This document shows positions 1 to 32,794 of a stretch of DNA of 32,794 nt, one piece after another. The translations under genes and the position numbers were made by a program. The DNA is from Thermoplasmatota archaeon (lineage in GTDB: Archaea > Thermoplasmatota > E2 > DHVEG-1), in NCBI GenBank assembly GCA_035561675.1, contig DATMXJ010000012.1:1-32794 (forward strand). Direction: 5' to 3'. Each line of letters starts with the position of its first letter. The first letter of the stretch is position 1. Below the pieces are notes generated by a model. That model had not been told where the DNA came from. It saw nothing but the letters and a program-made list of their open reading frames with translations, and made no database searches.

Positions 1-1
1 C

Positions 2-604
2 TGCACAGGAACGGAACATAAGAAGCTCGATGTCCCTGGTGAATCCGAGTTCATCGGAAAAGGAGTCTCTTATTGTGCGACCTGCGATGGTTTTTTCTTC
101 AAAGGAAAATGTGTTGTCGTGGTGGGTGGAGGCAACACCGCGTTGATGGAATCTATTTTTTTAAAAAAGCTCGGATGTAAGGAAGTCACTGTTGTACACC
201 GTCGTGGTCAATTTCGCGCGGAGAAGGTCTACGAGGAGGAAGCACGTGAGAAAGGGGTGCATTTTCTCTTCAATACCATCGTTGAGGAGATCCATGGAAA
301 GGAAAACGTCTCATCGGTAAGCCTTTTTAATTTAGAGACGAGTGCGCGATCAGAATTACTGGTGGAGGGCGTGTTTGCTTCTGTTGGGGTGTTACCTCAA
401 AACGAGATCGCAAAGGCATTGCAACTAAAGACGAACGATGACGGGTATGTCGTGGTCGATAGCGAACAACGTACAAGTGTTCGGGGTGTGTATGCCGCTG
501 GTGACATCACCGGTGGTCTGCGTCAGGTGGTCACCGCCTGTGCGAAAGGTGCGGTCGCTGCGTTGTCATCAACAGAGGTACTTGGGAAGAAATACCCTTA
601 CTGA
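2..604 (+). CDS. trxB: Thioredoxin-disulfide reductase, C-terminal ~200 aa (5' end lies outside the window)
   Basis: Frame 2 is open from base 2 and translates CTGTEHKKLDVPGESEFIGKGVSYCATCDGFFFKGK..., upstream of the ORF-track GTG at 119. It carries the redox-active CATC, VVVVGGGNTA, HRRGQFRA and YAAGD motifs typical of low-Mr TrxR. Confidence 0.9.
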   Translation, partial: CTGTEHKKLDVPGESEFIGKGVSYCATCDGFFFKGKCVVVVGGGNTALMESIFLKKLGCKEVTVVHRRGQFRAEKVYEEEAREKGVHFLFNTIVEEIHGKENVSSVSLFNLETSARSELLVEGVFASVGVLPQNEIAKALQLKTNDDGYVVVDSEQRTSVRGVYAAGDITGGLRQVVTACAKGAVAALSSTEVLGKKYPY

Positions 605-1044
605 AGCTTTGGTATCTGCTCGATTTTTTTCTTTTGTAGAAGCTTGATCAGGTCATCGCCGCTTTTTTTCACAGGATCACTGAGTGATCCTTGCATCGTT
701 TCTGGTTGAATTCCAATGAAAATAATACAGGGGACCTCATTTTCCAGGTATTTGATAAAAACGGAGAGTGGTATCCCATGTGTACTGAGGTGCATCGTCC
801 CGAGTTTTTCTCTTGGGATGATACGGATTTCACCAGGGGAAAGATTCATCTCTGCAGCATCGATGATGATGAGTGTTTTTGGTTTTTGTCGTTTGATGAC
901 CCCTGTGTAATTCTCTGGGATCGTCCCACAGTCAAGGACCATATCATGAGATGACTCTTGTTTCAATCGTTCAGCGATGTATGGCCCGATCCCATCATCG
1001 CCGCCCTCTTGATTGCCGATGCAGAGTATCAGAATGTCCTTCAT
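598..1044 (-). CDS. hycI: [NiFe]-hydrogenase maturation endopeptidase (HycI/HybD family)
   Basis: 148 aa. The N-terminus ILILCIGNQEGGDDGIGPYIAERL and the later HLSTHG are characteristic of hydrogenase C-terminal processing proteases. It lies next to hydrogenase genes. Confidence 0.85.
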   Translation of the reverse strand: MKDILILCIGNQEGGDDGIGPYIAERLKQESSHDMVLDCGTIPENYTGVIKRQKPKTLIIIDAAEMNLSPGEIRIIPREKLGTMHLSTHGIPLSVFIKYLENEVPCIIFIGIQPETMQGSLSDPVKKSGDDLIKLLQKKKIEQIPKLQ

Positions 1045-1062
1045 CGTCCCTTCAATTCAAAA

Positions 1063-1323
1063 TCATTTTGAATAAATAATCTTCTGATAGGTGAGGAGAA
1101 ACCACATGATGCCGGTCCCTGCGGTAGATATACTACTCAACAGCATGTCCAAGGTGAGAAACACATAGGCCATGACAGTCAGCAGGATTGCTGTGATAAG
1201 ATACATGGACAGCGACTGGCTTTTTGCCTCCTTATGGTGATAATTTCGAAAAATCGCGGGAATCGCGGTGATCATGAACCCGAAATTGATGATCGTTAGG
1301 ATAATATCCTGCCATTGCCACAT
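1063..1323 (-). CDS. Small 3-helix membrane protein, PQ-loop/SemiSWEET-like
   Basis: 86 aa with three hydrophobic helices. After helix 1 comes ITAIPAIFRNYHHKEAKSQSLSMY, which resembles the PQ-loop signature (PQ plus basic stretch plus S) but has PA instead of PQ. Confidence 0.45.
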   Translation of the reverse strand: MWQWQDIILTIINFGFMITAIPAIFRNYHHKEAKSQSLSMYLITAILLTVMAYVFLTLDMLLSSISTAGTGIMWFLLTYQKIIYSK

Positions 1324-1405
1324 ATGTCGCAGGGGATGGTAACAGAGAATATAAATAAATCTTTTCTATGGCGTATCATAAATAAACGATGTTCTTGGGG
1401 AAAGT

Positions 1406-2458
1406 ATGGCGAAGAAGATAACGCTTGCACAGGGTGCTGGTGGTGAACTGATGGACCAGCTTATTAAACAACACATCTTGCGTTTTTTTAACTTACAAGA
1501 CGCCGCGGAGGTTCCACTGACCGCTCTGGATGATGCCGCGGTTGTCGATGACATTGTGTTCTCCACGGATTCTCATACCGTGCAACCCCTGATTTTCCCT
1601 GGTGGTGATATCGGGTCACTTGCTGTCTGTGGGACCATTAATGATGTTTCTGTGGTTGGCGGGTCTCCTCTTGCGTTATCAGCAGGGTTCATCATCGAGG
1701 AGGGATTCTCCTTGGATACCTTTGAGACGATTGTCAAAAGCATGGGGCGTACGGCAAACAAGGCGCACGTCCCGATTGTCACGGGAGACACCAAGGTAGT
1801 CGAAAAAGGTGCGTTGCAGCAGTTCATGATCAACACCAGTGGCATTGGAAAACGAAGCCCTGCTCTGGAAAGAAATATAAAGGAAGTCAAAAGGTATAGA
1901 AAATTCAGGAGCCGCTGGTTACTTGACAGTAATCTTTCTGCGGGTGATACTCTGATTCTCTCCGGGAATGTCGGGGAACATGGTATCGCGTTGTTATCAT
2001 TCCGTGAGGGATACGGTTTTGAGACGACCATTCATTCAGATATCGCACCGTTAAACGGCTTGATGAGCGTTCTGCTTGCTGAAGGAGGCATTGTGTCTGC
2101 TAAGGATCCGACACGGGGTGGACTAGCAAACACGGTCAATGAGTTTTCAGAAAAATCACATGTCGGACTCCTTCTGTATGAAGACGCAATCCCCATACCA
2201 AAGGGTGTTCAATCCGCCTGTGATATGCTTGGTATCGATCCGTTGGAGATCGGCAATGAAGGGAAAGTTGTTCTTGGAGTGGTCAAGGAAAAAGCAGATG
2301 ATGTGCTTGCGATGTTGAAGAAACATCCGTTGGGAAAACATGCAGCTATCATCGGTGAAGCTACGGACAAGGTCTCCGGTGTCGTTCTGCAGACATCGGT
2401 TGGTGGTAAACGGATTTTACGTAAACCGCTTGGTGATCCTATCCCAAGGATTTGTTGA
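1406..2458 (+). CDS. hypE: Hydrogenase maturation protein HypE (carbamoyl dehydratase)
   Basis: 350 aa with a PurM-like fold signature: N-terminal ITLAQGAGG, DDAAV, GDTKVVEKG and the diagnostic C-terminal PRIC. Confidence 0.93.
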   Translation: MAKKITLAQGAGGELMDQLIKQHILRFFNLQDAAEVPLTALDDAAVVDDIVFSTDSHTVQPLIFPGGDIGSLAVCGTINDVSVVGGSPLALSAGFIIEEGFSLDTFETIVKSMGRTANKAHVPIVTGDTKVVEKGALQQFMINTSGIGKRSPALERNIKEVKRYRKFRSRWLLDSNLSAGDTLILSGNVGEHGIALLSFREGYGFETTIHSDIAPLNGLMSVLLAEGGIVSAKDPTRGGLANTVNEFSEKSHVGLLLYEDAIPIPKGVQSACDMLGIDPLEIGNEGKVVLGVVKEKADDVLAMLKKHPLGKHAAIIGEATDKVSGVVLQTSVGGKRILRKPLGDPIPRIC

Positions 2459-2512
2459 GTTTGGGGAGAACTTTTTAATAGTCTCATAGTTTACCTCAGT
2501 AGCAGACAACAG

Positions 2513-2968
2513 ATGAGGGGTGAATACGGTATCGCAAAAGGACTAGTAAAATCCTTTAAGAAAGCGTTATGGGTCTATCACATTAACTCAGGGTCCTGCA
2601 ATGGATGTGATATTGAGATCATTGCATCGCTCTGCCCCCGGTATGATATTGAACGGTTCGGTATCAAACTTGTCGGGTCTCCTCGTCACGCGGATGTGCT
2701 GCTCATCACCGGGCCGGTTTCACGGCAGATGGTTGACAAGGTGAAACGCACCTATGAGCAGATGCCTGATCCGAAAGCTGTGATCTGTGTCGGCAACTGC
2801 GGCAACACTGGGGATGTGTTCTATGAATCATATAATCTTGTCGGGCCTGTTGATAAAATCCTTCCTGTTGATGTGTACGTGATCGGATGTCCTCCTCGGC
2901 CGGAAAACATTATCCATGGGATAACAAAAGTATGGAAAAAGCTTGAGACCTTGGAGACAACCGCATGA
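2513..2968 (+). CDS. Group-4 [NiFe]-hydrogenase small subunit (NuoB/EchC/MbhJ-like)
   Basis: 151 aa. GSCNGCDIEI, GSPRHADVLLITGPV, CVGNCG and GCPPRPE give the four Cys of the single proximal [4Fe-4S] cluster of NuoB-type small subunits. Confidence 0.9.
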   Translation: MRGEYGIAKGLVKSFKKALWVYHINSGSCNGCDIEIIASLCPRYDIERFGIKLVGSPRHADVLLITGPVSRQMVDKVKRTYEQMPDPKAVICVGNCGNTGDVFYESYNLVGPVDKILPVDVYVIGCPPRPENIIHGITKVWKKLETLETTA

Positions 2969-3489
2969 TAAAGCCTGAAGATATCCTTGGTTCCTTCCAG
3001 ACGAATTTCCCAAATAGCATCACCGAACCTCGTATCGAACGTCGGACCGGTGGCACCCTGAAGACTGAAATCGTTCATCTGTGGTTTCATATCGAAGCCA
3101 GATTTCTCAAAGACGCGGTGAAGCATCTTTTCACGTTTGAACAGTACCCTCATTTTGCGGTATCTTCTGGCTATGACCTGGGGGATACCATTGAGCTTGT
3201 GTACCATTTCTCGTTGTTTCATGGTGAGCGGGGACGGGAGATTTCATTGAATATCACGGTTTCCCTGCCAAAGGAAAATCCTGTGATTGACACCATTACC
3301 GATCTTATCCCTGGGGCGTTGATCTCCGAGCAAGAAAAACAAGAGATGCTTGGGGTAAAAATACATGGGATCCCCAAGGACGTCCGGGTGTTTGTCGCAG
3401 ATGATTTCCCAAAGGATGTCTATCCCTGGCGTCGTGATGAAACCGGTCCAGCGAAACTCGTGCGGAATCTTCATGAGGGTGAATCATGA
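2965..3489 (+). CDS. Hydrogenase subunit, NuoC/30-kDa-subunit-like (EchD/MbhK position)
   Basis: 174 aa. ATGA overlaps with both neighbours indicate translational coupling. Its size and its position between the small and large subunits match NuoC-like subunits of group-4 enzymes. The sequence-level call is weaker than the context. Confidence 0.7.
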   Translation: MIKPEDILGSFQTNFPNSITEPRIERRTGGTLKTEIVHLWFHIEARFLKDAVKHLFTFEQYPHFAVSSGYDLGDTIELVYHFSLFHGERGREISLNITVSLPKENPVIDTITDLIPGALISEQEKQEMLGVKIHGIPKDVRVFVADDFPKDVYPWRRDETGPAKLVRNLHEGES

Positions 3490-4712
3490 CGACTACCTCA
3501 AAGACCACGTATCAGATTCCGATTGGTCCGATTCACCCTGCGTTGAAGGAGCCTGTGAACTTTACATTTGAAATCGATGGTGAGAAAATCATCAACGTCG
3601 ATGTACATCTTGGACATGTGCATCGGAGCATTGAATGGGCTGGGACGAAACGAAATTTCATTCAGATATTGTATCTTGCGGAGCGTATCTGTGGGATCTG
3701 CTCCTATTGTCATCCGATGTCTCTTGCTTTGGCTGTGGAACGTGCAGCGCACATACAAGTCCCAGATAGGGCAGAGTATCTTCGCGTGGTCCATGCAGAG
3801 TTGGAACGGATCGGCTCTCATATCCTCTGGGCGGGAGTCGCTGCCCATGAGATCGGGTTTGACTCCGTGTTGTTTTTAACGTGGCAAGTCCGGGAGACGG
3901 TCTTAGATCTTACCGAGTATCTGACTGGGAATCGGATCACGAAAGGGATCACGATGATTGGTGGGGTGCGACGCGATATCACTACTGAAATGGTCCCACG
4001 TATCCATGGGACGCTGCAGGATCTGAAGAAGCAGATGGAGAAGCTCCATCATGTGATGCTGGATGATTCCACGATTCAAATGCGTTGTCGGAACTGCGGG
4101 GTGTTGACCAAAGAAGACGCATTGAAGCTGTGCGCGGTCGGACCGACCGCTCGTGCATCTGGCGTGCGAAAGGATGTGCGTCTGGATCAGCCATATTTCG
4201 CGTTCGGTGACCTTGATTTTGAGTACACCACCCCCGATGTGCTTACCAACGAGGTCCATGGGGATGTATATGATCGTATCATCGTCCGGTTACTCGAGGT
4301 CAAACAATCCATTGATCTTATCGAGCAATGTCTTGACCGCATGCCTGCTGGAGACATTGTCGCTGAACCAGAGATCCCTGCTCTTCTGGCAGCGTTGAAG
4401 AAAGTGACTGGTGAGGGGATCGGACGGATGGAGGCTCCCCGTGGTGAGGTCTTTCATTATGTTCGACTCGCTGGATCAGAATCCCCGTATTCCTGGAAGG
4501 TTCGGGCACCCACGTACAATAATATCCTGCCTTGGATTCCTATGTTGCTGGGTCAGCAGATCGCAGACATCCCGATTATCGCAGCATCCATTGACCCCTG
4601 TATGTCCTGTACGAATCGAGTGACCATTGTTCATCACAACCAGCCAACGATGGTTGATCGTGAAAAACTCCATCAGTTAAGCATCGAGAAAACAAGGAGG
4701 CTGTGTCTATAA
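3486..4712 (+). CDS. Group-4 [NiFe]-hydrogenase large (catalytic) subunit (NuoD/EchE/MbhL-like)
   Basis: 408 aa. It has N-terminal IGPIHPALKEP, the L1 Ni-Fe ligand motif RICGICSYCH and the L2 motif DPCMSCTNR, followed by a 30-aa C-terminal extension (a putative HycI substrate). Confidence 0.92.
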   Translation: MTTTSKTTYQIPIGPIHPALKEPVNFTFEIDGEKIINVDVHLGHVHRSIEWAGTKRNFIQILYLAERICGICSYCHPMSLALAVERAAHIQVPDRAEYLRVVHAELERIGSHILWAGVAAHEIGFDSVLFLTWQVRETVLDLTEYLTGNRITKGITMIGGVRRDITTEMVPRIHGTLQDLKKQMEKLHHVMLDDSTIQMRCRNCGVLTKEDALKLCAVGPTARASGVRKDVRLDQPYFAFGDLDFEYTTPDVLTNEVHGDVYDRIIVRLLEVKQSIDLIEQCLDRMPAGDIVAEPEIPALLAALKKVTGEGIGRMEAPRGEVFHYVRLAGSESPYSWKVRAPTYNNILPWIPMLLGQQIADIPIIAASIDPCMSCTNRVTIVHHNQPTMVDREKLHQLSIEKTRRLCL

Positions 4713-5110
4713 GATACACGATGATTCCTCAGCTGCTTAGCCAGCTGTTCAAGAAGCCATTCACGAATAGGCATCCGAAGAAATATATCCCTTCATCTTC
4801 AACGACTTTTTTCACAGATGTTCAAAACGGAAAAGAAACGATGAACCCCCCTGTTGAAACCCCGGAGGGGTTCCGCGGGAAGATCGTCTATGAGAAGGAG
4901 AAATGTATCGGTTGTAAACTGTGTCTGAAGGTCTGCCCCTCTGAGGCTATTATTTTTAAGGACGAGGAGAAAAAGATCAAGATTTATCTTGCTCGCTGTA
5001 CCTTTTGTGCGCAATGTAATGATATCTGCCCAGTGAATTGTCTTCATATGAGCAACGAGTTTCTCCTAGCAGATACAGAAAAGTATTCGCCGTCCCTCAT
5101 CGTTGAATAA
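4703..5110 (+). CDS. 2x[4Fe-4S] ferredoxin-type hydrogenase subunit (NuoI/EchF/MbhN-like)
   Basis: 135 aa from the GTG at 4703; an alternative ATG lies at 4721. Two cluster motifs are present: CIGCKLCLKVCP and CTFCAQCNDICP. Confidence 0.85.
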   Translation: MSIRYTMIPQLLSQLFKKPFTNRHPKKYIPSSSTTFFTDVQNGKETMNPPVETPEGFRGKIVYEKEKCIGCKLCLKVCPSEAIIFKDEEKKIKIYLARCTFCAQCNDICPVNCLHMSNEFLLADTEKYSPSLIVE

Positions 5111-5153
5111 ACGAGAAATAGCTTTTAATAGGGTGTTGGTTGTCGGTATCTGT

Positions 5154-5384
5154 ATGGGGAAAAATCGGGATATCGCGAAGGTCCTTCTGTTGATTTTGAT
5201 TGGGATGTTCGTCCCGTTCCTTGGATCGATTACCCTTTCCTATGGGTTTGTGCCAAGAACAATTATTGTCACGTTTCTGTATTTCCTTGTCATTTTCGGA
5301 CTTGAGCTTGGGTTCGTGTACCTGTATTTTACTTTTAGCGGACGACGAGCGAACAAGAAAATGGAAGAGTACAAACCAAAATAA
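5154..5384 (+). CDS. Small hydrophobic membrane protein (76 aa, about 2 TM), function unknown
   Basis: The ORF-track TTG start at 5103 is trimmed to the ATG at 5154. The sequence MGKNRDIAKVLLLILIGMFVPFLG...IIVTFLYFLVIFGLELGFVYLYF has two clear hydrophobic spans and a basic tail. It is co-directional with, and directly behind, the hydrogenase genes. Confidence 0.5.
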   Translation: MGKNRDIAKVLLLILIGMFVPFLGSITLSYGFVPRTIIVTFLYFLVIFGLELGFVYLYFTFSGRRANKKMEEYKPK

Positions 5385-5490
5385 ATGGTACGGGTTTCTT
5401 GCTATACTTCTCCTTTTATTCGGGTTGTTTCTCAAAGGTAAAGGATAAATAGGAAAACTAGCATCAGGGGTGCAACGAGGTAAAACCATT

Positions 5491-5658
5491 ATGGTAGTAA
5501 AAGTTGATAAAGCAACGTGTACCGGCTGCGCAGCCTGCGCATCAGCATGCCCTGTTGAGGCGATCAAAGTCACTGAGAAAGCAGAGGTCAACGAGGACAC
5601 CTGCATCGATTGTGGCACCTGCGTCGATGAATGCCCAGTGCAGGCACTCAGTCTCTAA
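5491..5658 (+). CDS. Small 2x[4Fe-4S] ferredoxin (55 aa)
   Basis: CTGCAACASACP and CIDCGTCVDECP motifs. The ATG at 5491 sits 10 nt after GAGG and is preferred over the ORF-track GTG at 5470. Confidence 0.85.
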   Translation: MVVKVDKATCTGCAACASACPVEAIKVTEKAEVNEDTCIDCGTCVDECPVQALSL

Positions 5659-5673
5659 AATAATAAAGTTCGT

Positions 5674-6366
5674 TTATTTTTTCTTCTTTTTCCTTTCTAG
5701 TTTTTCTCGTACCTTTGGACTCGAAAGCTCTCTGATCGCATCTGCTGCAATCCAGCGTGCTGACTTTGAGTTTATGTTCTTGATTTCCTCTGCGGTCTTG
5801 AGTGCTTTTTTGTTCAGTGAAAGGTTTCTTTTCCCGATGTTGCGTAACGCCCAGTTCACCGCTTTTTTTACATAGTTCCTCTCATCCGTCGAATATGTGA
5901 TACAAAGGGGGAGAAAGTCTTCGAAATCATGGTCTGTCGCTGTCTTGTCATGGACCGTTAATCCTGCAATGAGGGAGAATGCGCCGCGTCTGACAAACTC
6001 TTTTTCTTTGTCCGCCCATTGGAACACTTTGTCGTATGCAAGTGGGCAACGATCAAAGAGGTTTGTGCATGCTTGGTCGCAGATGTCCCATGAGTCAAAA
6101 TCTTCTGCCCATGCATCCATCTGTTCTGAGGTGACCTGCTGTGGATCATCGATAAAGCAGGCGAGCAGTCGTGCGTCATGGATTTTGGAATCCCAGAGTT
6201 TGAGGGCAAGAGCATGGTTTATACCGATTTGCTTTGCAAGGGGCCGCAGGATGTAAATCGATATCCCAAGGTTGTTATGCTGGTTGATTCCGTAGCGTGT
6301 CATTCCTTTAACGTTTTCTGGATTTGCTAGGGAACGGAGTTTTGACATGATTTCGTCGTAGTCCAT
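5674..6366 (-). CDS. DNA alkylation repair protein (AlkD-like HEAT-repeat glycosylase family)
   Basis: 230 aa. The N-terminus LRSLANPENVKGMTRYGI...LGISIYILRPLAKQIG and the later W.D..DSWDICDQ and RNYVKKAVNWALRNIGKRN are typical of the DNA_alkylation family. Confidence 0.8.
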   Translation of the reverse strand: MDYDEIMSKLRSLANPENVKGMTRYGINQHNNLGISIYILRPLAKQIGINHALALKLWDSKIHDARLLACFIDDPQQVTSEQMDAWAEDFDSWDICDQACTNLFDRCPLAYDKVFQWADKEKEFVRRGAFSLIAGLTVHDKTATDHDFEDFLPLCITYSTDERNYVKKAVNWALRNIGKRNLSLNKKALKTAEEIKNINSKSARWIAADAIRELSSPKVREKLERKKKKK

Positions 6367-6395
6367 CGTGGTTCACGTGAATGCGTTATGTCTTT

Positions 6396-7019
6396 TTATT
6401 TCAATATTTTTCCGGTCTCAAGGAACCAGAGGTATAAGTCAAGTTCTGCGAGTGTCAATTTGGTGTTTCTGGCGATTTTTTGAAGATGGCCTTCGATTTT
6501 GAGATAGTTCTTTTTCGTCAGTTTTTTCGGTTGTTTGATGATGCGATATCGTGCGAGGATGTCAAGGATGTGGGTATCGATGATTGCGTAGTCATCGTAT
6601 CCGATGTTGCGCAGAAAATGGCTTGCTTCTTTATACCCGAGTCCTTTGATGTTGTCGACTAGCCATCTACGTCGTTGTTCATGTGGTAAGGTTTGAATCA
6701 TTGTGGGAAGAATATCTTTCTTTTTGGCTGATTCGACGATAAAGGCTGCTCTGGTGTTTGGGAATCGATATCCGTGCTGTCTGAGTTTTTTTGCTAGGGT
6801 TTCTTTGGTATCAGTGCAGAAACATTCAGAGAGTTGTGAGTGGATGTGGATGGTTCGCTCTGCGTTACAGTTGGCTGTCAGGATGCAGAAGGTGAGTTCT
6901 TGGAAGAGTTCCTCGGCGGAATGCGTATCAATGGTTTTGAACTCCTGAATTCGTCGGTGTATTTTTCTTTGTGTGTTGCTGTGTTTGAGGTCGTTGATGA
7001 CCGAAAGCAGATCGTTCAT
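6396..7019 (-). CDS. ogg: N-glycosylase/DNA lyase, archaeal Ogg2-type 8-oxoguanine glycosylase
   Basis: 207 aa. An HhH-GPD-like core, GLGYKEASHFLRNIGYDDYAIIDTHIL, supplies the catalytic Lys and Asp positions. Size and N-terminal layout match the M. jannaschii-type Ogg. Confidence 0.8.
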   Translation of the reverse strand: MNDLLSVINDLKHSNTQRKIHRRIQEFKTIDTHSAEELFQELTFCILTANCNAERTIHIHSQLSECFCTDTKETLAKKLRQHGYRFPNTRAAFIVESAKKKDILPTMIQTLPHEQRRRWLVDNIKGLGYKEASHFLRNIGYDDYAIIDTHILDILARYRIIKQPKKLTKKNYLKIEGHLQKIARNTKLTLAELDLYLWFLETGKILK

Positions 7020-7211
7020 GGTTTCTCCGTTTTAGAATGGGTGGGTGGAAAAAAAAGGTGGAGGGTGTAAAACAAACGAGGATTCTTAATTGGTGAGGAG
7101 AGGAGGAAAGGATGGGATGCAAAAAATATTTTTTCCCCGTTTGTTTTTACATCTCCACGTATGTTAACGTGAGGTGTTTGGTACCCTCTTAATTTATCTC
7201 CAATATACCCC

Positions 7212-7229
7212 TATTAACAATTGTTAATA
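7212..7229. promoter_or_regulatory. 18-bp perfect palindrome TATTAACAATTGTTAATA (candidate operator)
   Basis: Read directly from the sequence; it is its own reverse complement over 18 bp. It sits in the 341-nt divergent intergenic region between ogg and the HTH regulator gene. Confidence 0.5.
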
Positions 7230-7328
7230 CACCTACTGTATTTAAAACTATCGCATCCATGTCGACGAAAAGACAATCCATTACCCCCTTCTATTTTTAC
7301 CAATCTTTAAAAAAAATAAAAACATTAA

Positions 7329-7353
7329 TTATAAGTATAAATTAACAATTGTA
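7329..7353 (+). promoter_or_regulatory. TATA-like box (TTATAAGTATAAATT) overlapping a half-site copy (ATTAACAATTGT) of the upstream palindrome
   Basis: The AT-rich TATA-like element is centred about 25 nt upstream of the ATG at 7361, which suggests a leaderless or very short-leader mRNA. Bases 7341-7352 repeat 12 nt of the palindrome at 7213-7224. Confidence 0.45.
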
Positions 7354-7360
7354 CCCTTTG

Positions 7361-7696
7361 ATGAAACGCGTTCCCTGTGAATACGTGATATGGAATGGAC
7401 TTCCCCTTATCAGAAAAGAAATCGCAGAGAGCTTGATGACCAACTTCGGATTGAGCCAAAAACAAGCTGCAGAAAAACTCGGTATCACACCCGCAGCCGT
7501 CTGCCAGTACGTCTCTCACAAACGAGGAAATAAGACAATAGATGATGAAGAACTAAAAACAGAAATCAAACTTTCCGCACAACGCATCCTCAACTACACG
7601 GACGATGCCATGATCAAGGAGACCTGCCGTATCTGCAAGATTTTCATGGCAAAAGGGATCTTTCCTTCCGGATGTGACTCCTGCCCGCCTGAGTAA
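7361..7696 (+). CDS. HTH (XRE-like) transcriptional regulator with C-terminal Cys cluster
   Basis: The ORF-track TTG at 7349 is trimmed to the ATG at 7361. LSQKQAAEKLGITPAAVCQYVSHKRG is a helix-turn-helix. The C-terminus CRICKIF...GCDSC provides CxxC...CxxC. Confidence 0.7.
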   Translation: MKRVPCEYVIWNGLPLIRKEIAESLMTNFGLSQKQAAEKLGITPAAVCQYVSHKRGNKTIDDEELKTEIKLSAQRILNYTDDAMIKETCRICKIFMAKGIFPSGCDSCPPE

Positions 7697-7699
7697 AAC

Positions 7700-8644
7700 T
7701 TAACCCGGAGGAAAGAACACGGTAAATAGCGAGATGACCAAGGGGATACTGCCTAAGGAACAAATAAAACTCGCGACGAGAAACTGATTCACAATCGACT
7801 CATTCCCACCAACACGCTTCGTGAAAATCGGCAGCGCGGTGACCGGTGGCACAGCGCTTTGAAGTATCAGAAGCAACCCGATCTGATACGACGGTCTGAT
7901 GACCAACAAAGCTGCTAAAAAGATCAAAGGAAACAGCAGATTTTTTATCAGAACAAACTTCGCAATCTCTGTACTATATATCTTTCCTTTTCGCTGGAAA
8001 TCCAGGGATAGACTTCCACCGATCACCAGCATCAATAGGGGCACCGTCATCGCCCCAAGCATCGTAAGGATCGTAAGAACCATACCTGGGACATATGACT
8101 GGATGTCAGCAAACCGGATCATCAACGCAAGGATCGTGGAGATGAAAACGATATTAAAGATACGTCTCCAATTTATTTTTCTCTCGTTTTTCCCAAAAAA
8201 ATATGGATAAATGTTGAACAGGAAAGCAGGGTAAAAAATCATAAACAAAAATAAGGAAACAAGATACGGAGACGAAGCACCAAACATCCCGGTAAGAATC
8301 GCAAGAGGGAAAAACAACCCGTTATGCAAAAACAGACTCATGGCAAACTCACGTCTCGTCGTCTTTTTTGATGCAAACATAAATGCTCCGGTCAAGAGTG
8401 CTGCAAGGCCGGTAAAAACAACCCACCAGAGCGGAAGCACCCACCAGTCTGGTATCTCTTGAGGAGAAAAATTTGAGACGATGTTCACAAACACAAGACA
8501 GGGCAAAGCAAGGTCCAAGGCAAGATTCGAAAGGGCACCAAGTGCGTTTTCTGCGACAACCCTTCGTTGGACAATCAAAAAACCAAAAACACCAATACCA
8601 AGAAGAATAGCCACTGATTGGAATGTGATAGCGACAAGATCCAT
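7700..8644 (-). CDS. AEC-family (auxin efflux carrier-like) membrane transporter
   Basis: The start is trimmed to the ATG at 8644 (MDLVAITFQSV...). The protein is about 314 aa, polytopic, with about 10 hydrophobic helices in two halves separated by a basic loop (GKNERKINWRR), the layout of AEC permeases. Confidence 0.6.
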   Translation of the reverse strand: MDLVAITFQSVAILLGIGVFGFLIVQRRVVAENALGALSNLALDLALPCLVFVNIVSNFSPQEIPDWWVLPLWWVVFTGLAALLTGAFMFASKKTTRREFAMSLFLHNGLFFPLAILTGMFGASSPYLVSLFLFMIFYPAFLFNIYPYFFGKNERKINWRRIFNIVFISTILALMIRFADIQSYVPGMVLTILTMLGAMTVPLLMLVIGGSLSLDFQRKGKIYSTEIAKFVLIKNLLFPLIFLAALLVIRPSYQIGLLLILQSAVPPVTALPIFTKRVGGNESIVNQFLVASFICSLGSIPLVISLFTVFFPPG

Positions 8645-8789
8645 GGTATATTCATAATCTCGAAAACATCCAGGACTTAAAGAGATTACGATAAAGGAAA
8701 CCTTAGGAGTCTGGTTCTGAGAAGAAGCTAGATTTATAAACAAGGTTCTTTATCTCAGGGCGATTAATAGTACAGGGAGTTATGAATGT

Positions 8790-9224
8790 ATGAGAACGAC
8801 ATCGATACTTGATCTGATGACAGCAGATCATACAAAAATCCTGAAACTGTTAGGCGATGTTGAAAAAAGCATAGGCATTGAACTGGTATCCCTGATGAAG
8901 GTGTTTGATACCTTTGAATGGGAGCTCGAAAAACATATTTTCACTGAAGAAAAAGCGATTTTTTCCTCGTATAACCCAAGGAACATTTCTGAGGGTTATA
9001 AGATGGTCCCAGAGCTCATCCAGCAGCATAATGAGATCCTTAATCGCATCCGGGTCATGCGAAAGGACTTGATGTGGAATAAACCAGTGCAATATCCCGA
9101 GTTCAAAGAACTGATCATGGCTCACAAAACATTCGAGGAAACATCATTGTACCCGAAACTAGACCAAGAATTAACCAATGCACAAAAAGATGAAATCATA
9201 AAGAAAATCCGCGAAATCGTTTGA
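8790..9224 (+). CDS. Hemerythrin (HHE cation-binding) domain protein
   Basis: 144 aa. Spaced His/Glu ligand pattern: ADHTKIL, ELEKHIFTEE, IQQHNEIL, MAHKTFEE. Confidence 0.6.
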   Translation: MRTTSILDLMTADHTKILKLLGDVEKSIGIELVSLMKVFDTFEWELEKHIFTEEKAIFSSYNPRNISEGYKMVPELIQQHNEILNRIRVMRKDLMWNKPVQYPEFKELIMAHKTFEETSLYPKLDQELTNAQKDEIIKKIREIV

Positions 9225-9236
9225 GAATATCTTTTT

Positions 9237-9767
9237 TCACGACATCGTAAAAGGTTCAAATCGCTCCGCTTTTGCCTTACAGATAGGACAGATTGGTGGG
9301 GGTATTTCTCTGGCGCACAAATACCCGCACACGGTGCATCTCCAGACCCTGACAGCCCCTGTTTTTTTTCTTGCTATCGGTTGATCTGTTATTTCTTTTG
9401 GGACATTTGGTTTTTTTTCCGCTGCAGCAAGGACCACATCAATAATTTCCTGAGGTCTCCGTTCCGGAATCGGTCCTAACAGAGATGGATTATTTTTTAT
9501 CTTTTCATTGACAAACAATCCACAATAACACATCCCGTACTCATCGACATCAGCGTCGCGGTACTCACAAGGGCAGATGATGTCAACATCGTATTCTTTT
9601 GCGCCACTTGCGACACGACAGGGACAGGACCCGTACCCATATCGAGCAGTATTTGTTGCTAGACCATCGATGAGATCATTGTGGAGCTGTTGATCAGGGC
9701 ATATATAATACCCATTGTCTTTTGCGTTTTTTTTCATCGCCTCAATGATAGATTCTTTTCCAGTCAT
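9237..9767 (-). CDS. Ferredoxin:thioredoxin/disulfide reductase catalytic-subunit-like domain fused to a C-terminal rubredoxin-like domain
   Basis: FTR-beta Cys pattern CPCR-x13-CPC-x12-CYC (CPCRVASGAKEYDVDIICPCEYRDADVDEYGMCYCGLF), then WRCTVCGY...PPICPICKAKAERF (rubredoxin knuckles). Confidence 0.85.
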   Translation of the reverse strand: MTGKESIIEAMKKNAKDNGYYICPDQQLHNDLIDGLATNTARYGYGSCPCRVASGAKEYDVDIICPCEYRDADVDEYGMCYCGLFVNEKIKNNPSLLGPIPERRPQEIIDVVLAAAEKKPNVPKEITDQPIARKKTGAVRVWRCTVCGYLCAREIPPPICPICKAKAERFEPFTMS

Positions 9768-10051
9768 GAGCGGAGCTTCTCCATAATTTCTTTATCTTTG
9801 AATCCAAGAATCACATGTTTTCCATGATCGATTACGATGGTCGGATAAGTACGATACGGATTGTATTTTTTCACTTCATCGGTCGCCTCTATGTAATCGT
9901 TTCCTGTCAATGTATCGACATCCACATATTCAAAGGAGATATCAAGAGCTTTGAGAAGCTCCTTTGTTTTCTTGCACCATCCACAGGTGCTCAGGGTATA
10001 GACTTTCACGTGATGTGTCGTATTCTTCCCAGGGATTGTTTCGCGTTTCAT
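9764..10051 (-). CDS. Glutaredoxin/NrdH-like small thioredoxin-fold protein
   Basis: 95 aa with active site CGWC in VYTLSTCGWCKKTKELL and a TYPTIVI cis-Pro region. A 4-nt overlap with the downstream reductase gene indicates translational coupling. Confidence 0.85.
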   Translation of the reverse strand: MKRETIPGKNTTHHVKVYTLSTCGWCKKTKELLKALDISFEYVDVDTLTGNDYIEATDEVKKYNPYRTYPTIVIDHGKHVILGFKDKEIMEKLRS

Positions 10052-10145
10052 TGCGTTTATATTCTCTCGGGCTCTAAAAACTTTATGCTTCTTCGAAAAA
10101 CTAGTTTTAAATAGAATAAACCTATGTGAGACATGAGGTGAAAGC

Positions 10146-10340
10146 GTGACTGTTAATTATTATCAATGTCAAACGTGTAAGAAAAAGACTATCGTAAAAA
10201 CAAAGAAAGAGAAACCATCCTGCTGCGGAAAACCAATGAAGAAGATATCGGTTGATATCTGCCTTCAGCCAGATCATGCTGAACATTCTCGACCGATGGG
10301 AGAAGATGAACCGTGTGATGATTTCCGCGGTGGTAATTAA
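10146..10340 (+). CDS. Desulforedoxin-like small metal-binding protein (64 aa)
   Basis: YQCQTCKKK-x-CCGKPM reproduces the Cx2C...CCGxxM signature of the desulforedoxin / Dfx N-terminal domain. A GAGGTGA RBS precedes the GTG at 10146. Confidence 0.6.
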   Translation: MTVNYYQCQTCKKKTIVKTKKEKPSCCGKPMKKISVDICLQPDHAEHSRPMGEDEPCDDFRGGN

Positions 10341-10358
10341 AAGGAGAGCTGATGTGGT

Positions 10359-10481
10359 ATGGGAAAATGTGATGTCTGTAGTTGTGAATTTGAAGAAGAA
10401 GACATACGACACATAGCTATAAAAGGTAAACCAAAAAAGATTTGTCAGGAATGCGTCGCAGCAATCAAGGGATTTGCGTAA
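10359..10481 (+). CDS. Unlisted 40-aa Zn-ribbon protein (MGKCDVCSCEFEEEDIRHIAIKGKPKKICQECVAAIKGFA)
   Basis: My own translation; it is below the ORF-track size cutoff. AAGGAGAG lies 10 nt upstream of the ATG. The pattern is CxxC-x21-CxxC. The ORF fills the gap up to the convergent yjbQ stop exactly. Confidence 0.55.
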   Translation: MGKCDVCSCEFEEEDIRHIAIKGKPKKICQECVAAIKGFA

Positions 10482-10880
10482 TTACTTGTTTTTATTTGTG
10501 GAAATATATACGGTCCTGTGTCGTGGTCCGTCTCCTTCATAAAAAAAGATATGCTGCCAGGTCCCAAGGACAAGTTTTCCCTTCGCAATAAGTATGGTTA
10601 CCGATGAACCTAGTACGCTTGCCTTGATGTGCGCGTCACTGTTTCCTTCGGAATGATGATAGGATGCGTTTTCCGGTATCAATTTTTCTAATGTTTCGAT
10701 GATGTCTTGTTGGACGTCTGGGTCCGCCCCTTCGTTAATGGTGATGCCAGCCGTCGTATGCGGGACATAAACGATGAGGGACCCTTCATTGATATTTTCC
10801 TCTTTGACGAGTCGTTGGACCTCATCGGTGATATCGATCATCTGATTTCTTCTCTGCGATGAGATATGTAGTTCCTTCAT
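10482..10880 (-). CDS. yjbQ: YjbQ/UPF0047 family protein (secondary thiamine-phosphate synthase-like)
   Basis: 132 aa. IDITDEV, VPHTTAGITINEGADPDV, HSEGNSDAHIKA and GTWQHIFF.EGDGPR are hallmark UPF0047 blocks. Confidence 0.85.
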   Translation of the reverse strand: MKELHISSQRRNQMIDITDEVQRLVKEENINEGSLIVYVPHTTAGITINEGADPDVQQDIIETLEKLIPENASYHHSEGNSDAHIKASVLGSSVTILIAKGKLVLGTWQHIFFYEGDGPRHRTVYISTNKNK

Positions 10881-10970
10881 TAAGAAGGCTCATCTGTTTT
10901 TTTCTATTTAAACCGTGTTGATGAGAAAACCTTTTTGTACCACTGCCTGGTACAGCAGCTCCTGAAGACC

Positions 10971-11567
10971 ATGAAGCTTGCTCCAAGTGCGATCCTCTTT
11001 GATATGGATGGTGTCCTTGTCGATTCACTTGATTCCTGGTGGAAAGCGTTGAACAGTGCGTTACAGAGATTCAAACACCAAGAAATCACCCGTGAAGAAT
11101 TCATAATCACCTATTGGGGTCATGGCCTCAAAGCAAACCTCGAACGATTGCACCTGAACCCTGAGGTCGCCCGATTCTGCAATATCACCTACGGCAACCA
11201 TCTCGATCTTGTCACGATTTACCCTGATACGGAAAACACATTGAGAACCCTAGCGACCTACAAGAAGGTGGTGATTACAAATACTCCTTCTGATTGTGCA
11301 CGGCAGATTCTTCGGAAGTTTCATATCGAGCAGTATTTCGAGGCGATCATCACCAGTGATGATGTCGTCAGATCGAAACCTGACCCGGAGATCGTTTTCA
11401 AAGCATGTGAACGACTCGGTGTCTCTGTACAAAGCGTCCTGCTGATCGGTGATACGGAGAGTGACGTGAAAGCAGGGAAAGCAGCTGGATGTACAGTCGT
11501 TGGTGTGAATATCCCTGCGGATTTCATGATTCAGAGGCTTTCAGAATTACCTTCTCTCCTTCGTTAA
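10971..11567 (+). CDS. HAD-IA family hydrolase (phosphatase)
   Basis: The start is trimmed to the ATG at 10971. Motif I is ILFDMDGVLVDS, motif II VVITNT, motif III RSKPDPE, and motif IV IGDTESDVKAGKAAG. Confidence 0.85.
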   Translation: MKLAPSAILFDMDGVLVDSLDSWWKALNSALQRFKHQEITREEFIITYWGHGLKANLERLHLNPEVARFCNITYGNHLDLVTIYPDTENTLRTLATYKKVVITNTPSDCARQILRKFHIEQYFEAIITSDDVVRSKPDPEIVFKACERLGVSVQSVLLIGDTESDVKAGKAAGCTVVGVNIPADFMIQRLSELPSLLR

Positions 11568-11636
11568 AAGAGATGGTCGTTCCTTTTTTTCTTCTCAATC
11601 GGAATAGTTAAAAATAACCTATGAGATGCAAGGCAG

Positions 11637-12407
11637 GTGAGTACTATGGAGGAAGATATTCAAATCATTGAATATAAGAACATTGATCTTTCAAACTCGG
11701 TCCTTATTGAAGCGTTCCCCACGGTTGGGCTTGTCAGTTCCATCGCTGGTCATTTCCTTGTTGAGCAATTGAACCTGGAGGAGATTGGAACAATCAGCTC
11801 TCGTTATTTCATGCCCGCTGCAGTAATCCATAACGGAATGCCATCTCCCCCTGTGAGGATTTACGCAAGCAAAAAAATCTGTGGATCGAATGGTGATTGT
11901 GATCAGATTGTTGTGATTATCTCTGAGTTCATGCCGTCGGTTGATATCATCAAACCAGTCGCAAGCATGATATTGTCCTGGGCGCAGAAAAAGAAATGCA
12001 GTCATATTGTGACGTTAGAAGGGACCCATGGCCTGAATCCGAAAAAACCAAAAACATATGGGGTTGCCACGACACAGAAAATGAAAGACATCCTCAAGAA
12101 ATATTCCATTGAGGAAACAAAGGAAGGCATGATTACAGGGATCACTGGAGTCTTGCTCTTTGAGGGAGCACGGTTGAAACAGGATGTCCTGTGTCTTCTT
12201 GCTGAAGCTCATTCTTCGTATCCGGATTCTCGTGCGGCAGCCCTGCTTGTGGAAACACTTGATAAAATGCTACCTGAAATAAAGATAGACACCCAGCCGT
12301 TGTACAAGGAAGCAGATGACATCGAACAGAAGATCCGGTCTTTCATCAAACAAGCACAGCCGACCGCGCCGTCATCGGTTCCTCTTCAACCACAGATGTA
12401 CGGATAA
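11637..12407 (+). CDS. PAC2-family proteasome assembly chaperone / activator (PbaA/PbaB-like)
   Basis: 256 aa. LIEAFPTVGLVSSIAGHFLVEQL...PPVRIYAS is typical of archaeal PAC2 proteins. The C-terminus ends MYG (an HbYX-type tail). An alternative ATG start lies at 11646. Confidence 0.75.
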   Translation: MSTMEEDIQIIEYKNIDLSNSVLIEAFPTVGLVSSIAGHFLVEQLNLEEIGTISSRYFMPAAVIHNGMPSPPVRIYASKKICGSNGDCDQIVVIISEFMPSVDIIKPVASMILSWAQKKKCSHIVTLEGTHGLNPKKPKTYGVATTQKMKDILKKYSIEETKEGMITGITGVLLFEGARLKQDVLCLLAEAHSSYPDSRAAALLVETLDKMLPEIKIDTQPLYKEADDIEQKIRSFIKQAQPTAPSSVPLQPQMYG

Positions 12408-12415
12408 AGGGAGCG

Positions 12416-12976
12416 TTATTTGTTCGTATATCGATTCAAAAACACGAATTTCTCCAGGGGAAATCGTTCTGGTCTTTTCTTCTCAATCGCTGCCTGTTTT
12501 TCAGAAAGAATAGGATAGATGGTCGCTGCATGCTTCCCTACGTTTATCAACGTGATGACCTCAAGGTCCTCTGGGATACCAAGGATCTCCCTGGTTTTTT
12601 TCGGGCTGTATCCTGCGATAGGATGTGCCACTAAACCAAGTTCCGTTGCTCGTAGGATGAGAAACGCGGTCGCCATCCCAGTATCAAATTGATGGTACAC
12701 CCGCTCCCCAATTATGCAATCATATTCTTTCTTGCTGAGGACTACGATGATCATTGACGCGCGCTGCACCCATTCGTTTCCCTTTGAGATCGCCTCATGC
12801 ATTTTCTTTAGCATCTCTCGTTCATAAACGAAGACGAATCTCCAGGGCTGATTGTTGTTACATGATGCTGAGAGTTGTGCATGTAATGCAAGGTCCCTAA
12901 TTAAATCCTCAGTGATTTCAATAGGATCAAGCGAACGGTATGCTCGCCGATTTCGAATCGCTTCTTTCACATCCAT
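12416..12976 (-). CDS. Nitroreductase-family flavoprotein
   Basis: 186 aa. N-terminus AIRNRRAYRSL and NNQPWRFVFV are canonical nitroreductase-fold motifs. Confidence 0.85.
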   Translation of the reverse strand: MDVKEAIRNRRAYRSLDPIEITEDLIRDLALHAQLSASCNNNQPWRFVFVYEREMLKKMHEAISKGNEWVQRASMIIVVLSKKEYDCIIGERVYHQFDTGMATAFLILRATELGLVAHPIAGYSPKKTREILGIPEDLEVITLINVGKHAATIYPILSEKQAAIEKKRPERFPLEKFVFLNRYTNK

Positions 12977-13096
12977 GTTTTACCCCCATGACAGGGAAAT
13001 TGATTGAGATTAATTATCCCGTGGTCTCTTAAAGATTTCTCTTAGTCGAAATTGAAAAAGAAAACTATAAGATGGAGTGAGACTATTTCCTATCTC

Positions 13097-13339
13097 ATGG
13101 CAATCGGATTTGCGTTGTTAAGTATAAGCCCGCTTCATGAAAAAACGGTATATGAGAAACTCACCCATATATCGGAAATCATCGAGGTCCATCCGCTCTT
13201 TGGGGAATTCGATATCCTTGTGAAAATTCAAGCCTCTGATATCGACTCGATCGGAAGTATCGTGATTAACAAGATTCGATCGATTCAAGGGGTGATGGAT
13301 TCAAAAACATTGATCGGGACGAAGAGCTTATCCGGTTAA
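13097..13339 (+). CDS. Stand-alone Lrp/AsnC ligand-binding (RAM) domain protein
   Basis: The start is trimmed from the TTG at 13052 to the ATG at 13097. EVHPLFGEFDILVKIQASDIDSIGSIVINKIRSIQGV is the RAM-domain beta-alpha-beta-beta-alpha-beta pattern with no HTH in front. Confidence 0.65.
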   Translation: MAIGFALLSISPLHEKTVYEKLTHISEIIEVHPLFGEFDILVKIQASDIDSIGSIVINKIRSIQGVMDSKTLIGTKSLSG

Positions 13340-13499
13340 TACCTCATTCTCTCTTTATACCTGATAAAGTGCTGAGAATATTTTTTTTACATCCCATGTA
13401 ACGGTCTCGGTTGTCCATTGATATAATCATGGAACAATTATATTTACAGAGATACATTTATGTAGGAGAGATGTACATGTCTTCGAAAGGGGAATATCC

Positions 13500-31972: not shown

Positions 31973-32794
31973 GGGTCTGTTTTTTTCACCATGAGATGTT
32001 GTTCGATAAACGTCCAGTTGACGCTGTAGACTTCAGCCCAATGAATTTCTTCGTTATCCTGGTTGACCGTGGCGTTCCGGTAGACGAGCTCAAACGGTTC
32101 CTGTGAAAACTTCAGAAACGACTCGTTGGTCATATACACGCTCTGCAGGACACGGACGTTGACCGAGATATCGCGCATCACATCATCGATGAGCACATGC
32201 GTCACCACACGGTGGCTCTCCCCATCGAAATCAGTGATGCAGCCTACCCAGGTATCACACGTCCAGGTATCATTAGTACCTTCGAAGGTCGCGTCGATGC
32301 CTTCTGCCCATATCATTTTGGATAGCCGTAGGTCGGTGGCAACCAGGGAATCATTCCTATCAAGGTTGTCGTGGATCCATTGGATAGCATTGGCAGTCTC
32401 ATTCGGGATGCTTTCATCCATCCACTCTAGTGACGTGTACACGGGGTAGACCGCTACGGCGTTTGAAAACACCAGGCCGCAGACGACCAGGACAAACAGC
32501 GCCTGAATCGTGGGGTATGAGAGCTGTTTTTTGAGAATCAGCGACACTTTATGCTCCCTGGATCTGAAGAAGTACAAGACACCGACGGCAGCGAACAAAC
32601 ACGCAGGGACCGTAAGATATTCGACATGACGATCTGGGAACAATGTCGTATTTACCGTTACCAGTGAATAGATGAATGATGAAAGGATAGCGCATAACCA
32701 GGCTTGGAAGAACCAGTGGTTCTTCACATGTTTCAGGTATTCAACACCAAGGCATCCGAACCCGATGAAGAGCAGCATCGGGATTGAATATAGG
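31969..32794 (-). CDS. Polytopic membrane protein with ~165-aa C-terminal soluble domain (possibly the C-terminal part of a GT-C-type glycosyltransferase); N-terminus outside the window
   Basis: The frame stays open to the window edge upstream of the ORF-track ATG at 32778. Several TM helices are followed by a hydrophilic domain with multiple N-x-S/T sequons (NETA, NDSL, NDTW, NESF, NATV, NWTF). The product call is tentative. Confidence 0.55.
   Translation of the reverse strand, partial: LYSIPMLLFIGFGCLGVEYLKHVKNHWFFQAWLCAILSSFIYSLVTVNTTLFPDRHVEYLTVPACLFAAVGVLYFFRSREHKVSLILKKQLSYPTIQALFVLVVCGLVFSNAVAVYPVYTSLEWMDESIPNETANAIQWIHDNLDRNDSLVATDLRLSKMIWAEGIDATFEGTNDTWTCDTWVGCITDFDGESHRVVTHVLIDDVMRDISVNVRVLQSVYMTNESFLKFSQEPFELVYRNATVNQDNEEIHWAEVYSVNWTFIEQHLMVKKTDP

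Follow-up and report, generated by a model that had tools for sequence, protein, structure and literature searches.

A split-operon Mbh-type [NiFe]-hydrogenase cassette in a Thermoplasmatota archaeon and the expected location of its membrane arm

Background

Group 4 [NiFe]-hydrogenases are thought to be ancestral to respiratory complex I, and a member of this group without any membrane subunits would be a notable exception. Such a case seemed to be raised by contig DATMXJ010000012.1 of the Thermoplasmatota archaeon assembly GCA_035561675.1 (GTDB lineage E2; DHVEG-1), which was analysed here over positions 1 to 32,794 (this whole stretch of 32,794 nucleotides is hereafter referred to as the window). 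Near its left end lies a tightly packed cassette for four hydrophilic subunits of a group 4 [NiFe]-hydrogenase, and no membrane subunit of the NuoH or NuoL kind stands beside it. Where, then, is the membrane part of this enzyme encoded, if it is encoded at all? A sequence-only reading of the locus had called the cassette Ech-type and had proposed either a soluble or small-anchor-tethered enzyme or a hydrophilic arm docking on membrane subunits whose genes lie elsewhere. We found that the cassette is mbhJ, mbhK, mbhL and mbhN of a group 4d Mbh-type hydrogenase, and we consider it likely that it forms the peripheral arm of a ferredoxin-dependent, H2-evolving Mbh of the Thermoprofundales (MBG-D, for Marine Benthic Group D; E2), with the membrane arm tens of kilobases away, so that a second locus would supply the subunits that seemed to be missing. 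The split layout is already known, having been described in 2022 by Liu et al. (Mol Biol Evol 39:msac213; PMC9585477), and the question of an independent peripheral arm has likewise been posed in the literature. Whether a complex-I-like arm encoded apart from its anchor is assembled with it or functions alone bears on the modular evolution of complex I.

A group 4 catalytic module with adjacent maturation genes

The open reading frame (ORF) map and family searches bore out the earlier identification of four subunits and gave the following cassette and maturation genes, with protein lengths in amino acids (aa).

598..1044, minus strand: hycI, large-subunit C-terminal maturation endopeptidase (PF01750, E 2.7e-20)
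1406..2458, plus strand: hypE, [NiFe] maturation, cyanide ligand synthesis (TIGR02124, 376 bits, cut-off 251.6)
2513..2968, plus strand: mbhJ, NuoB-like small subunit, 151 aa, proximal [4Fe-4S] cluster (PF01058, E 6e-32)
2965..3489, plus strand: mbhK, NuoC-like subunit, 174 aa (PF00329, E 1.5e-17)
3486..4712, plus strand: mbhL, [NiFe] catalytic large subunit, 408 aa (PF00346 and PF00374)
4703..5110, plus strand: mbhN, NuoI-like 2x[4Fe-4S] subunit, 135 aa, putative ferredoxin-facing electron entry (Fer4)

Direct reading of the sequence confirmed ATGA overlaps at 2965-2968 and 3486-3489 and a 10-nucleotide overlap at 4703-4712, and mbhK occupies the position that it has in canonical mbhA-N clusters. 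Both Ni-Fe ligand motifs of MbhL are intact in the translation, RICGICSYCH with C69 and C72 and DPCMSCTNR with C372 and C375. Residues E22, C69, C72, C372 and C375 align with E21, C68, C71, C374 and C377 of Pyrococcus furiosus MbhL (PMC9585477), and a C-terminal tail of 30 aa follows the arginine of DPCMSCTNR. The cysteines at the aligned cluster positions of MbhJ are all present (C29, C32, C96 and C126). MbhN carries two CxxCxxCxxxCP motifs, CIGCKLCLKVCP and CTFCAQCNDICP, and its N-terminal segment IRYTMIPQLLSQLFKKPFTN aligns with residues 2-25 of P. furiosus MbhN. Nuo and Ehr proteins are without the RxCGxCxxxH and DPCxxCxxR Ni-Fe motifs. The cassette thus has the defining features of a group 4 [NiFe]-hydrogenase catalytic module, namely the Ni-Fe ligands, the Fe-S ligands, and the tail together with hycI and hyp genes. 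The product of the adjacent hycI scores 133 bits on the TIGR00142 hycI equivalog of NCBIfam (cut-off 119.1), so that both maturation genes pass their equivalog cut-offs, and in every split-type relative hycI and hypE diverge from each other. Ligands, tail, hycI and hypE together uphold the earlier proposal of an enzyme that is probably matured and active.

The cassette is of the Mbh and not the Ech type

We compared MbhL, MbhJ and MbhN with all PDB chains, a set without an Ech structure. MbhL matched P. furiosus MbhL best (6cfw_L, E 6e-111, 374 bits, aligned residues 10-378), the next-best match being Escherichia coli HycE with 253 bits; MbhJ matched 6cfw_J (E 1.4e-57, 197 bits), and MbhN matched 6cfw_N with its N-terminal segment included (E 2.4e-28, 102 bits). 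The three 6cfw chains led clearly over HycE/G/F, MbsL and Nqo4. Close homologues of the window's MbhL bear the JGI label "membrane-bound hydrogenase subunit alpha", and a published phylogeny places Thermoprofundales MbhL proteins in group 4d (PMC9585477). The assignment to group 4d rather than 4e was made because the structural matches, the operon type of the relatives (below) and that tree agree.

The class that had been read from the order of the four genes was therefore revised: the closest subunits are P. furiosus MbhL, MbhJ and MbhN, and the partner genes in relatives are Mrp-type mbhA-I with mbhM instead of echA and echB. No echA or echB adjoins the cassette in the window, as a six-gene echABCDEF layout would have it. 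The canonical contiguous mbhA-N arrangement with mbhM between mbhL and mbhN is absent as well, since mbhN overlaps mbhL and neither mbhM nor mbhA-I is found in the window. The lineage is a split-operon variant, and its departure from the canonical form concerns gene order, not the enzyme.

Gene order in relatives

Homologues of MbhL number in the thousands, and the closest (74-96% identity) all come from Thermoplasmatota metagenome-assembled genomes (MAGs) and sediment metagenomes; the nearest in the protein collection, 96% identical, lies on a contig of 2.6 kb. A scan of GTDB species representatives with the large subunit returned 80 loci, which were annotated by a script for ORFs, transmembrane helices and BLAST matches; the loci compared here, from this and other scans, carry L numbers. 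Loci whose MbhL is at most 63% identical (50-63%) show the canonical order mbhA-I, J, K, L, M, N, hycI and come from Atribacterota, Dehalococcoidia, Methanomicrobiales, other Thermoplasmata and a Thermococcus MAG. In these loci small Mrp-like membrane genes are followed by an antiporter-like MbhH of about 520 aa, MbhI, J, K, L, an MbhM of about 335 aa with 8 helices, and N, with hycI on the opposite strand. Among relatives whose operon is contiguous, the nearest have mbhA-N clusters, including PF13244 MbhD and PF20501 MbhE.

Nearly all loci with at least 70% MbhL identity share another order: hycI on the minus strand, then hypE, J, K, L and N without M, usually followed by hypF. Such M-less loci were found in ten relatives (L001-L007, L009, L010 and L014), among them MAG M9B1D (L007), a published Thermoprofundales (MBG-D) genome (PMC6461988). 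Among the closest of them, L001 is a contig from a JGI metagenome that runs colinear with positions 1-14742 of the window (76-77% nucleotide identity), the 76-aa and ferredoxin genes after mbhN included, and L002, from an independent Logan assembly, repeats this order. Mis-assembly around 5110-5400 was ruled out by the identical gene order in these two independent assemblies.

An arrangement of a third kind was found in the Thermoplasmata MAG Bin3_14.8m (L008, 9031-17284; MbhL 76%), in which J-K-L-N is followed after about 200 nucleotides by A-I-M on the same strand. With mbhM already relocated to the end, this layout is plausibly an intermediate between the canonical and the fully split form.

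The membrane arm at a second locus in relatives

Within the window, none of the polytopic ORFs belongs to PF00146 (NuoH-like) or PF00361 (NuoL-like); they comprise Mem_trans, an ABC-2 permease, LPG_synthase_TM and a further ORF that matched no family. The local lack of membrane subunits is thus as first described, and the impression of an enzyme without them is due to the limits of the window. When MbhM of L008 was used as query, it retrieved protein P0192 on contig Ga0130025_1021932 (114,122 bp), the same contig as L001. This contig carries the cassette at 16.2-18.8 kb, with an MbhL 89% identical to that of the window, and on the same strand an orphan membrane arm at 61.06-66.53 kb (L086) consisting of MNHE, MrpF, MnhG, MbhD, MbhE, MnhB, Oxidored_q2, a 521-aa Proton_antipo_M protein, a 111-aa protein and a 343-aa NADHdh protein. 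In relatives, then, the partner arm is made up of MnhE, MrpF, MnhG, MbhD, MbhE, MnhB and a NuoK-like protein, plus MbhH, MbhI and MbhM. Orphan mbhH- and mbhM-like genes on the very contig of a syntenic cassette speak against a cassette devoid of membrane partners, and so does membership of subgroup 4d, which is known to be membrane-bound and for which a split operon has been described (PMC9585477); the sequence-only reading had itself named evidence of both kinds as adverse. When subunits seem to be "missing" from a window of 30 kb, the whole genome should be checked before an enzyme is put forward as a soluble derivative.

From the end of mbhN (about 18.8 kb) to the membrane arm, the L001 contig spans 42 kb. 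Counted from the end of mbhN at 5110 in the window, the arm would be expected at about 47 kb, some 14.5 kb (14-20 kb) beyond the window end at 32,794. The orphan arm is flanked, also in other assemblies, by thyX and ribD_C upstream and by archaeosortase, psd and CDP-alcohol phosphatidyltransferase genes downstream. A membrane module in the same genome as the cassette was seen in the syntenic relative and in L008; the corresponding region of the window's own genome lies outside the 32.8 kb.

We further scanned metagenomes with P0192 and obtained 80 MbhM loci of 66-92% identity. The A-I-M order was present in 80/80, with all ten genes in 39, and at least 3 kb of sequence was available upstream of mbhA in 27 loci and downstream of mbhM in 36. 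Matches to J, K, L, N, hycI or hypE were found in 0/80 of these metagenome loci.

Constraint on the anchor and a model for the enzyme

A comparison of the Ga0130025 contig with L008 gives identities of 80% for MbhM, 73% for MbhL, 71% for MbhH, 67% for MbhN and 62% for MbhK. Mean identities across the 39 complete orphan arms are 74% for MbhM, 64% for MbhH and 60% for MbhI, and in comparison with canonical clusters MbhM (48-57%) tracks MbhL (50-59%). These figures give no hint that constraint on MbhM was relaxed once the operon had split. The MBH structure has MbhM as the membrane anchor, with MbhL and MbhJ in contact with it, and MbhI maintains the interface with the ion-translocating module, while Mrp antiporters are without such an anchor (PMC8165549). 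MbhM and MbhI are kept in every orphan arm, for which continued docking of JKLN appears to be the best explanation.

We therefore suggest that an ancestral mbhA-N operon was rearranged, with mbhM leaving its slot between mbhL and mbhN and now ending a separate mbhABCDEFGHI-M operon. Electrons from reduced ferredoxin would enter at the two [4Fe-4S] clusters of MbhN. The small ferredoxin encoded downstream of mbhN may serve as the donor, possibly reduced by 2-oxoacid or aldehyde oxidoreductases. Next in the electron path would come the proximal cluster of MbhJ, and last the Ni-Fe site of MbhL, where protons would be reduced to H2. The peripheral arm most likely still docks on MbhM, through MbhL and MbhJ with MbhI at the interface, and H2 formation would drive the Mrp-like module and build an ion gradient. 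The active site would be assembled by HypE with Hyp proteins encoded elsewhere, and the 30-aa tail of MbhL would be removed by HycI.

Docked, free or relict: weighing the alternatives

Several points weigh against a docked enzyme in this organism. The arm is expected in the window's genome on the strength of synteny with a relative of about 77% DNA identity, and the assembly of the two arms with each other is suggested indirectly, by the conservation of MbhM and MbhI. The arms are separate transcription units with separate promoters, and no specific shared element was shown. Liu et al., who analysed 146 Thermoprofundales genomes and put the hydrogenase in group 4d, reported that the MBH cluster of Subgroup E falls into two parts, MbhJKLN as the peripheral arm and MbhABCDEFGHIM as the membrane arm, that peripheral-arm transcripts are much more abundant than membrane-arm transcripts, that a recombinant maltose-binding protein (MBP)-MbhL fusion evolved H2, and that mbhA-M partially complemented the salt tolerance of antiporter-deficient E. 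coli KNabc, and they concluded that the arms are independent (PMC9585477). In that proposal, JKLN is a free cytoplasmic ferredoxin:proton oxidoreductase that conserves no energy and mbhA-I-M is a separate Na+/H+ antiporter; operons lying tens of kilobases apart under their own promoters, the transcript ratio, the two assays and the dedicated small ferredoxin gene after the window's cassette are all in its favour. However, the sole known role of MbhM is to anchor and couple the peripheral arm, true Mrp antiporters do without it (PMC8165549), and it is kept at the end of every orphan arm, where it is among the best-conserved subunits. The interface subunit MbhI is kept too, the N-terminal segment of MbhN still aligns with that of P. 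furiosus, and both modules are contiguous in L008. The published assay used a lone MBP-tagged large subunit from E. coli with methyl viologen, which in our own assessment is no proof of a soluble or independent native four-subunit arm. On balance, we regard a free-standing cassette as unlikely. It is also conceivable, although we would give it little weight, that mbhJKLN is a part-time unattached cytoplasmic ferredoxin:H+ oxidoreductase and that the cell chooses between a docked, energy-conserving mode and a free, redox-venting one; unattached operation has already been suggested in print (PMC9585477). The retention and conservation of MbhM and MbhI argue against permanent independence and would be compatible with such a dual mode.

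The two remaining alternatives concern loss of the membrane arm. An Ech-type (group 4e) enzyme that truly lost its membrane subunits and became a new soluble derivative would fit the echC-D-E-F-like order of small, NuoC-like, large and 2x[4Fe-4S] subunits and the window's lack of a membrane subunit, but we hold it to be extremely improbable: among group 4 enzymes with solved structures (no Ech among these) the three tested subunits are closest to Mbh, the nearest contiguous operons are mbhA-N with Mrp-type small subunits, PF13244 and PF20501, a ten-gene Mbh membrane arm stands on the cassette contig of the syntenic relative, and the published phylogeny has MbhL in group 4d (PMC9585477). Loss in the window's genome alone, with the hydrophilic module left over, is improbable too. 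It would accord with the fact that the arm was observed in relatives and not in this genome, with a DNA difference of about 23% from the syntenic contig, and with the replacement of hypF by a ferredoxin gene in the window's subclade, a sign of ongoing rearrangement. Yet gene order is identical to that of the relative over the comparable 14.7 kb, orphan arms are abundant in metagenomes at matching levels of divergence, and no split-type relative was found without the arm, absence being unscorable on fragments. A peripheral arm that docks on MbhM is thus the reading we favour; of the two options left by the sequence-only reading, the arm docking on subunits encoded elsewhere was retained and the soluble or small-anchor-tethered form was set aside.

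Putative promoters of the two arms

A putative archaeal promoter precedes mbhJ.

2472..2495, plus strand: putative mbhJKLN promoter, TATA-like TTTTTAATAG then GTTTACC

This motif occurs once in the window and is conserved 50-90 nucleotides upstream of mbhJ in 11/12 split-type loci. Both mbhJ and mbhA (L086, about 5480-5525, and equivalents) have a conserved B recognition element (BRE)/TATA box with (G/A)(A/T)TTACC about 10 nucleotides downstream. A weight matrix built from the mbhA promoters alone placed the mbhJ promoter at the top in 5/12 peripheral loci and in second place in 2 more, L004 and L005, which are nearly identical. Generic BRE/TATA signal makes up most of the matrix, and ATTAC was also found at other conserved promoters, for example that of an NTPase_1 gene. 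We therefore dropped the idea of a shared regulatory element linking the arms and do not claim co-regulation; the BRE/TATA and TTACC combination is probably a generic initiator-region element.

Comparison with known hydrogenases

Nothing essential separates the window from the split MBH of Subgroup E, a likeness by lineage and gene layout rather than a formal assignment to Subgroup E. Both are Thermoplasmatota of class E2 and MBG-D relatives, and both have mbhJKLN without mbhM and, as seen in the window's relatives, a separate mbhABCDEFGHIM arm. The window's subclade differs in having the 76-aa membrane protein gene and the ferredoxin gene after mbhN, where most relatives have hypF, and L008 represents an adjacent J-K-L-N/A-I-M variant of the split layout.

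The P. furiosus MBH (6CFW, group 4d) shares with the window the Ni-Fe cysteines, the equivalent of E21 and the Fe-S ligands, matches MbhL over nearly its full length, and consists of 14 subunit types that are all found in the window's syntenic relative. In contrast, its genes form one mbhA-N operon with mbhM between mbhL and mbhN, whereas the split lineage has two operons with mbhM after mbhI; P. furiosus is a hyperthermophile, while the window comes from a mesophilic sediment archaeon. Ech (group 4e, echABCDEF, in Methanosarcina barkeri and others) is likewise a ferredoxin-dependent group 4 enzyme, and its hydrophilic gene order echC-D-E-F resembles that of the cassette. However, Ech has only EchA and EchB in the membrane, encoded in the same operon and without Mrp-type small subunits, whereas the partner arm of the split lineage has ten Mbh/Mrp-type subunits, and sequence similarity favours Mbh. 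The formate hydrogenlyase of E. coli (HycE/HycG/HycF, 7Z0S, group 4a) has homologous large, small and Fe-S subunits and a large subunit processed by a HycI-type protease; the window's enzyme shows weaker similarity to it and is without a fused NuoC domain, a formate dehydrogenase partner and a HycC/HycD-type arm.

Small neighbouring genes

The remaining features around the cassette are as follows.

1063..1323, minus strand: small membrane protein, 86 aa, conserved neighbour between hycI and hypE
5154..5384, plus strand: two-helix membrane protein, 76 aa, conserved neighbour, not demonstrably part of the enzyme
5491..5658, plus strand: clostridial-type 2x[4Fe-4S] ferredoxin, 55 aa (62 aa from an upstream GTG) (PF00037, E 1.4e-16)
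5674-6366, minus strand: DNA-alkylation-repair gene, convergent

Pfam and NCBIfam searches returned no match for the 86-aa protein, whose homologues lie in the same place in L001, L003 and L010; we presume a faint likeness to PQ-loop/semiSWEET proteins from its PAIF...S-rich first helix. The same searches found no family for the 76-aa protein. Its gene is present in L001, L002, L005, L006 and L014, between mbhN or hypF and alkD, is absent in L003, and is apparently preceded by a TATA-like element of its own. As a substitute anchor, either protein was rejected, for neither has similarity to Mbh membrane subunits or a family match; for the 76-aa protein, the position after hypF in other genomes, the absence from L003 and the apparent promoter of its own told further against this role.

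The small ferredoxin scores 51.7 bits on NF058577 FdxA_fam, under its 65-bit cut-off. Its gene after mbhN is limited to the window's closest relatives, L001 and L002, and in more distant split-type relatives (L003-L006 and L014) hypF takes its place, so hypF must be located elsewhere in the window's genome. In relatives, hypF, hypC, hypD and hypA lie near the two arms, as does a NUBPL/ParA-type ATPase gene; their products would act with HypE and HycI in the maturation of MbhL. The adjacent ferredoxin is a candidate electron donor for the cassette.

Related cassettes elsewhere and genomic context

A Bathyarchaeia MAG (L074, 7770-13050, on a 298-kb contig) carries hypA, a NUBPL/ParA-type ATPase gene, NuoB-, NuoC- and large-subunit-like genes and a 2x[4Fe-4S] subunit gene. 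The Ni-Fe motifs of its large subunit are intact, and the 2x[4Fe-4S] gene is directly followed by one for an FrhB/FdhB-like protein of 514 aa that has CBS domains. L and N are not separated by a NuoH-like gene, and no MbhM-type ORF of about 335 aa with 8 helices was found in the flanking genes, the polytopic ORFs farther out lying beyond the Pfam scan. This locus suggests that M-less JKLN cassettes, possibly F420-linked, occur outside Thermoprofundales, and in the light of it the published claim that the split is unique to Subgroup E (PMC9585477) looks too strong. A Thermoproteales MAG (L077, 5392-8359) has hycI, J, K, L and N, with N right after L and without M, adjoining V/A-type ATPase subunit genes; its contig ends inside N, so that a downstream membrane arm is possible.

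Two further loci, L011 (9998-11230) and L012, contain an orphan mbhL-like gene whose product is 73% and 71% identical, respectively, to the window's MbhL and retains the two CxxC Ni-Fe motifs as well as the C-terminal tail; mbhJ, mbhK and mbhN are absent. The gene has rubrerythrin and desulfoferrodoxin genes on its two sides and is part of an oxidative-stress cluster that also includes flavodiiron protein, rubredoxin, peroxiredoxin, ferritin and SufBC genes. It is probably no assembly artefact, because two independently assembled Thermoplasmatales MAGs contain it.

Rfam and tRNA scans of the window found no RNA genes. Archaeal housekeeping genes in the window include those for isopentenyl phosphate kinase, type-2 isopentenyl-diphosphate isomerase (IDI), geranylgeranyl diphosphate (GGPP) synthase and an archaeal-type Ogg. 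Around the cassette (119-604 and 7349-12976) lies a redox and stress neighbourhood that is kept in relatives, with genes for thioredoxin reductase, hemerythrin, YjbQ and nitroreductase and the DNA repair genes alkD and ogg. In the product of the gene at 9237-9767, a rubredoxin-like domain is fused to the catalytic subunit of a ferredoxin:thioredoxin-reductase, and in relatives NrdD and NrdG are encoded upstream.

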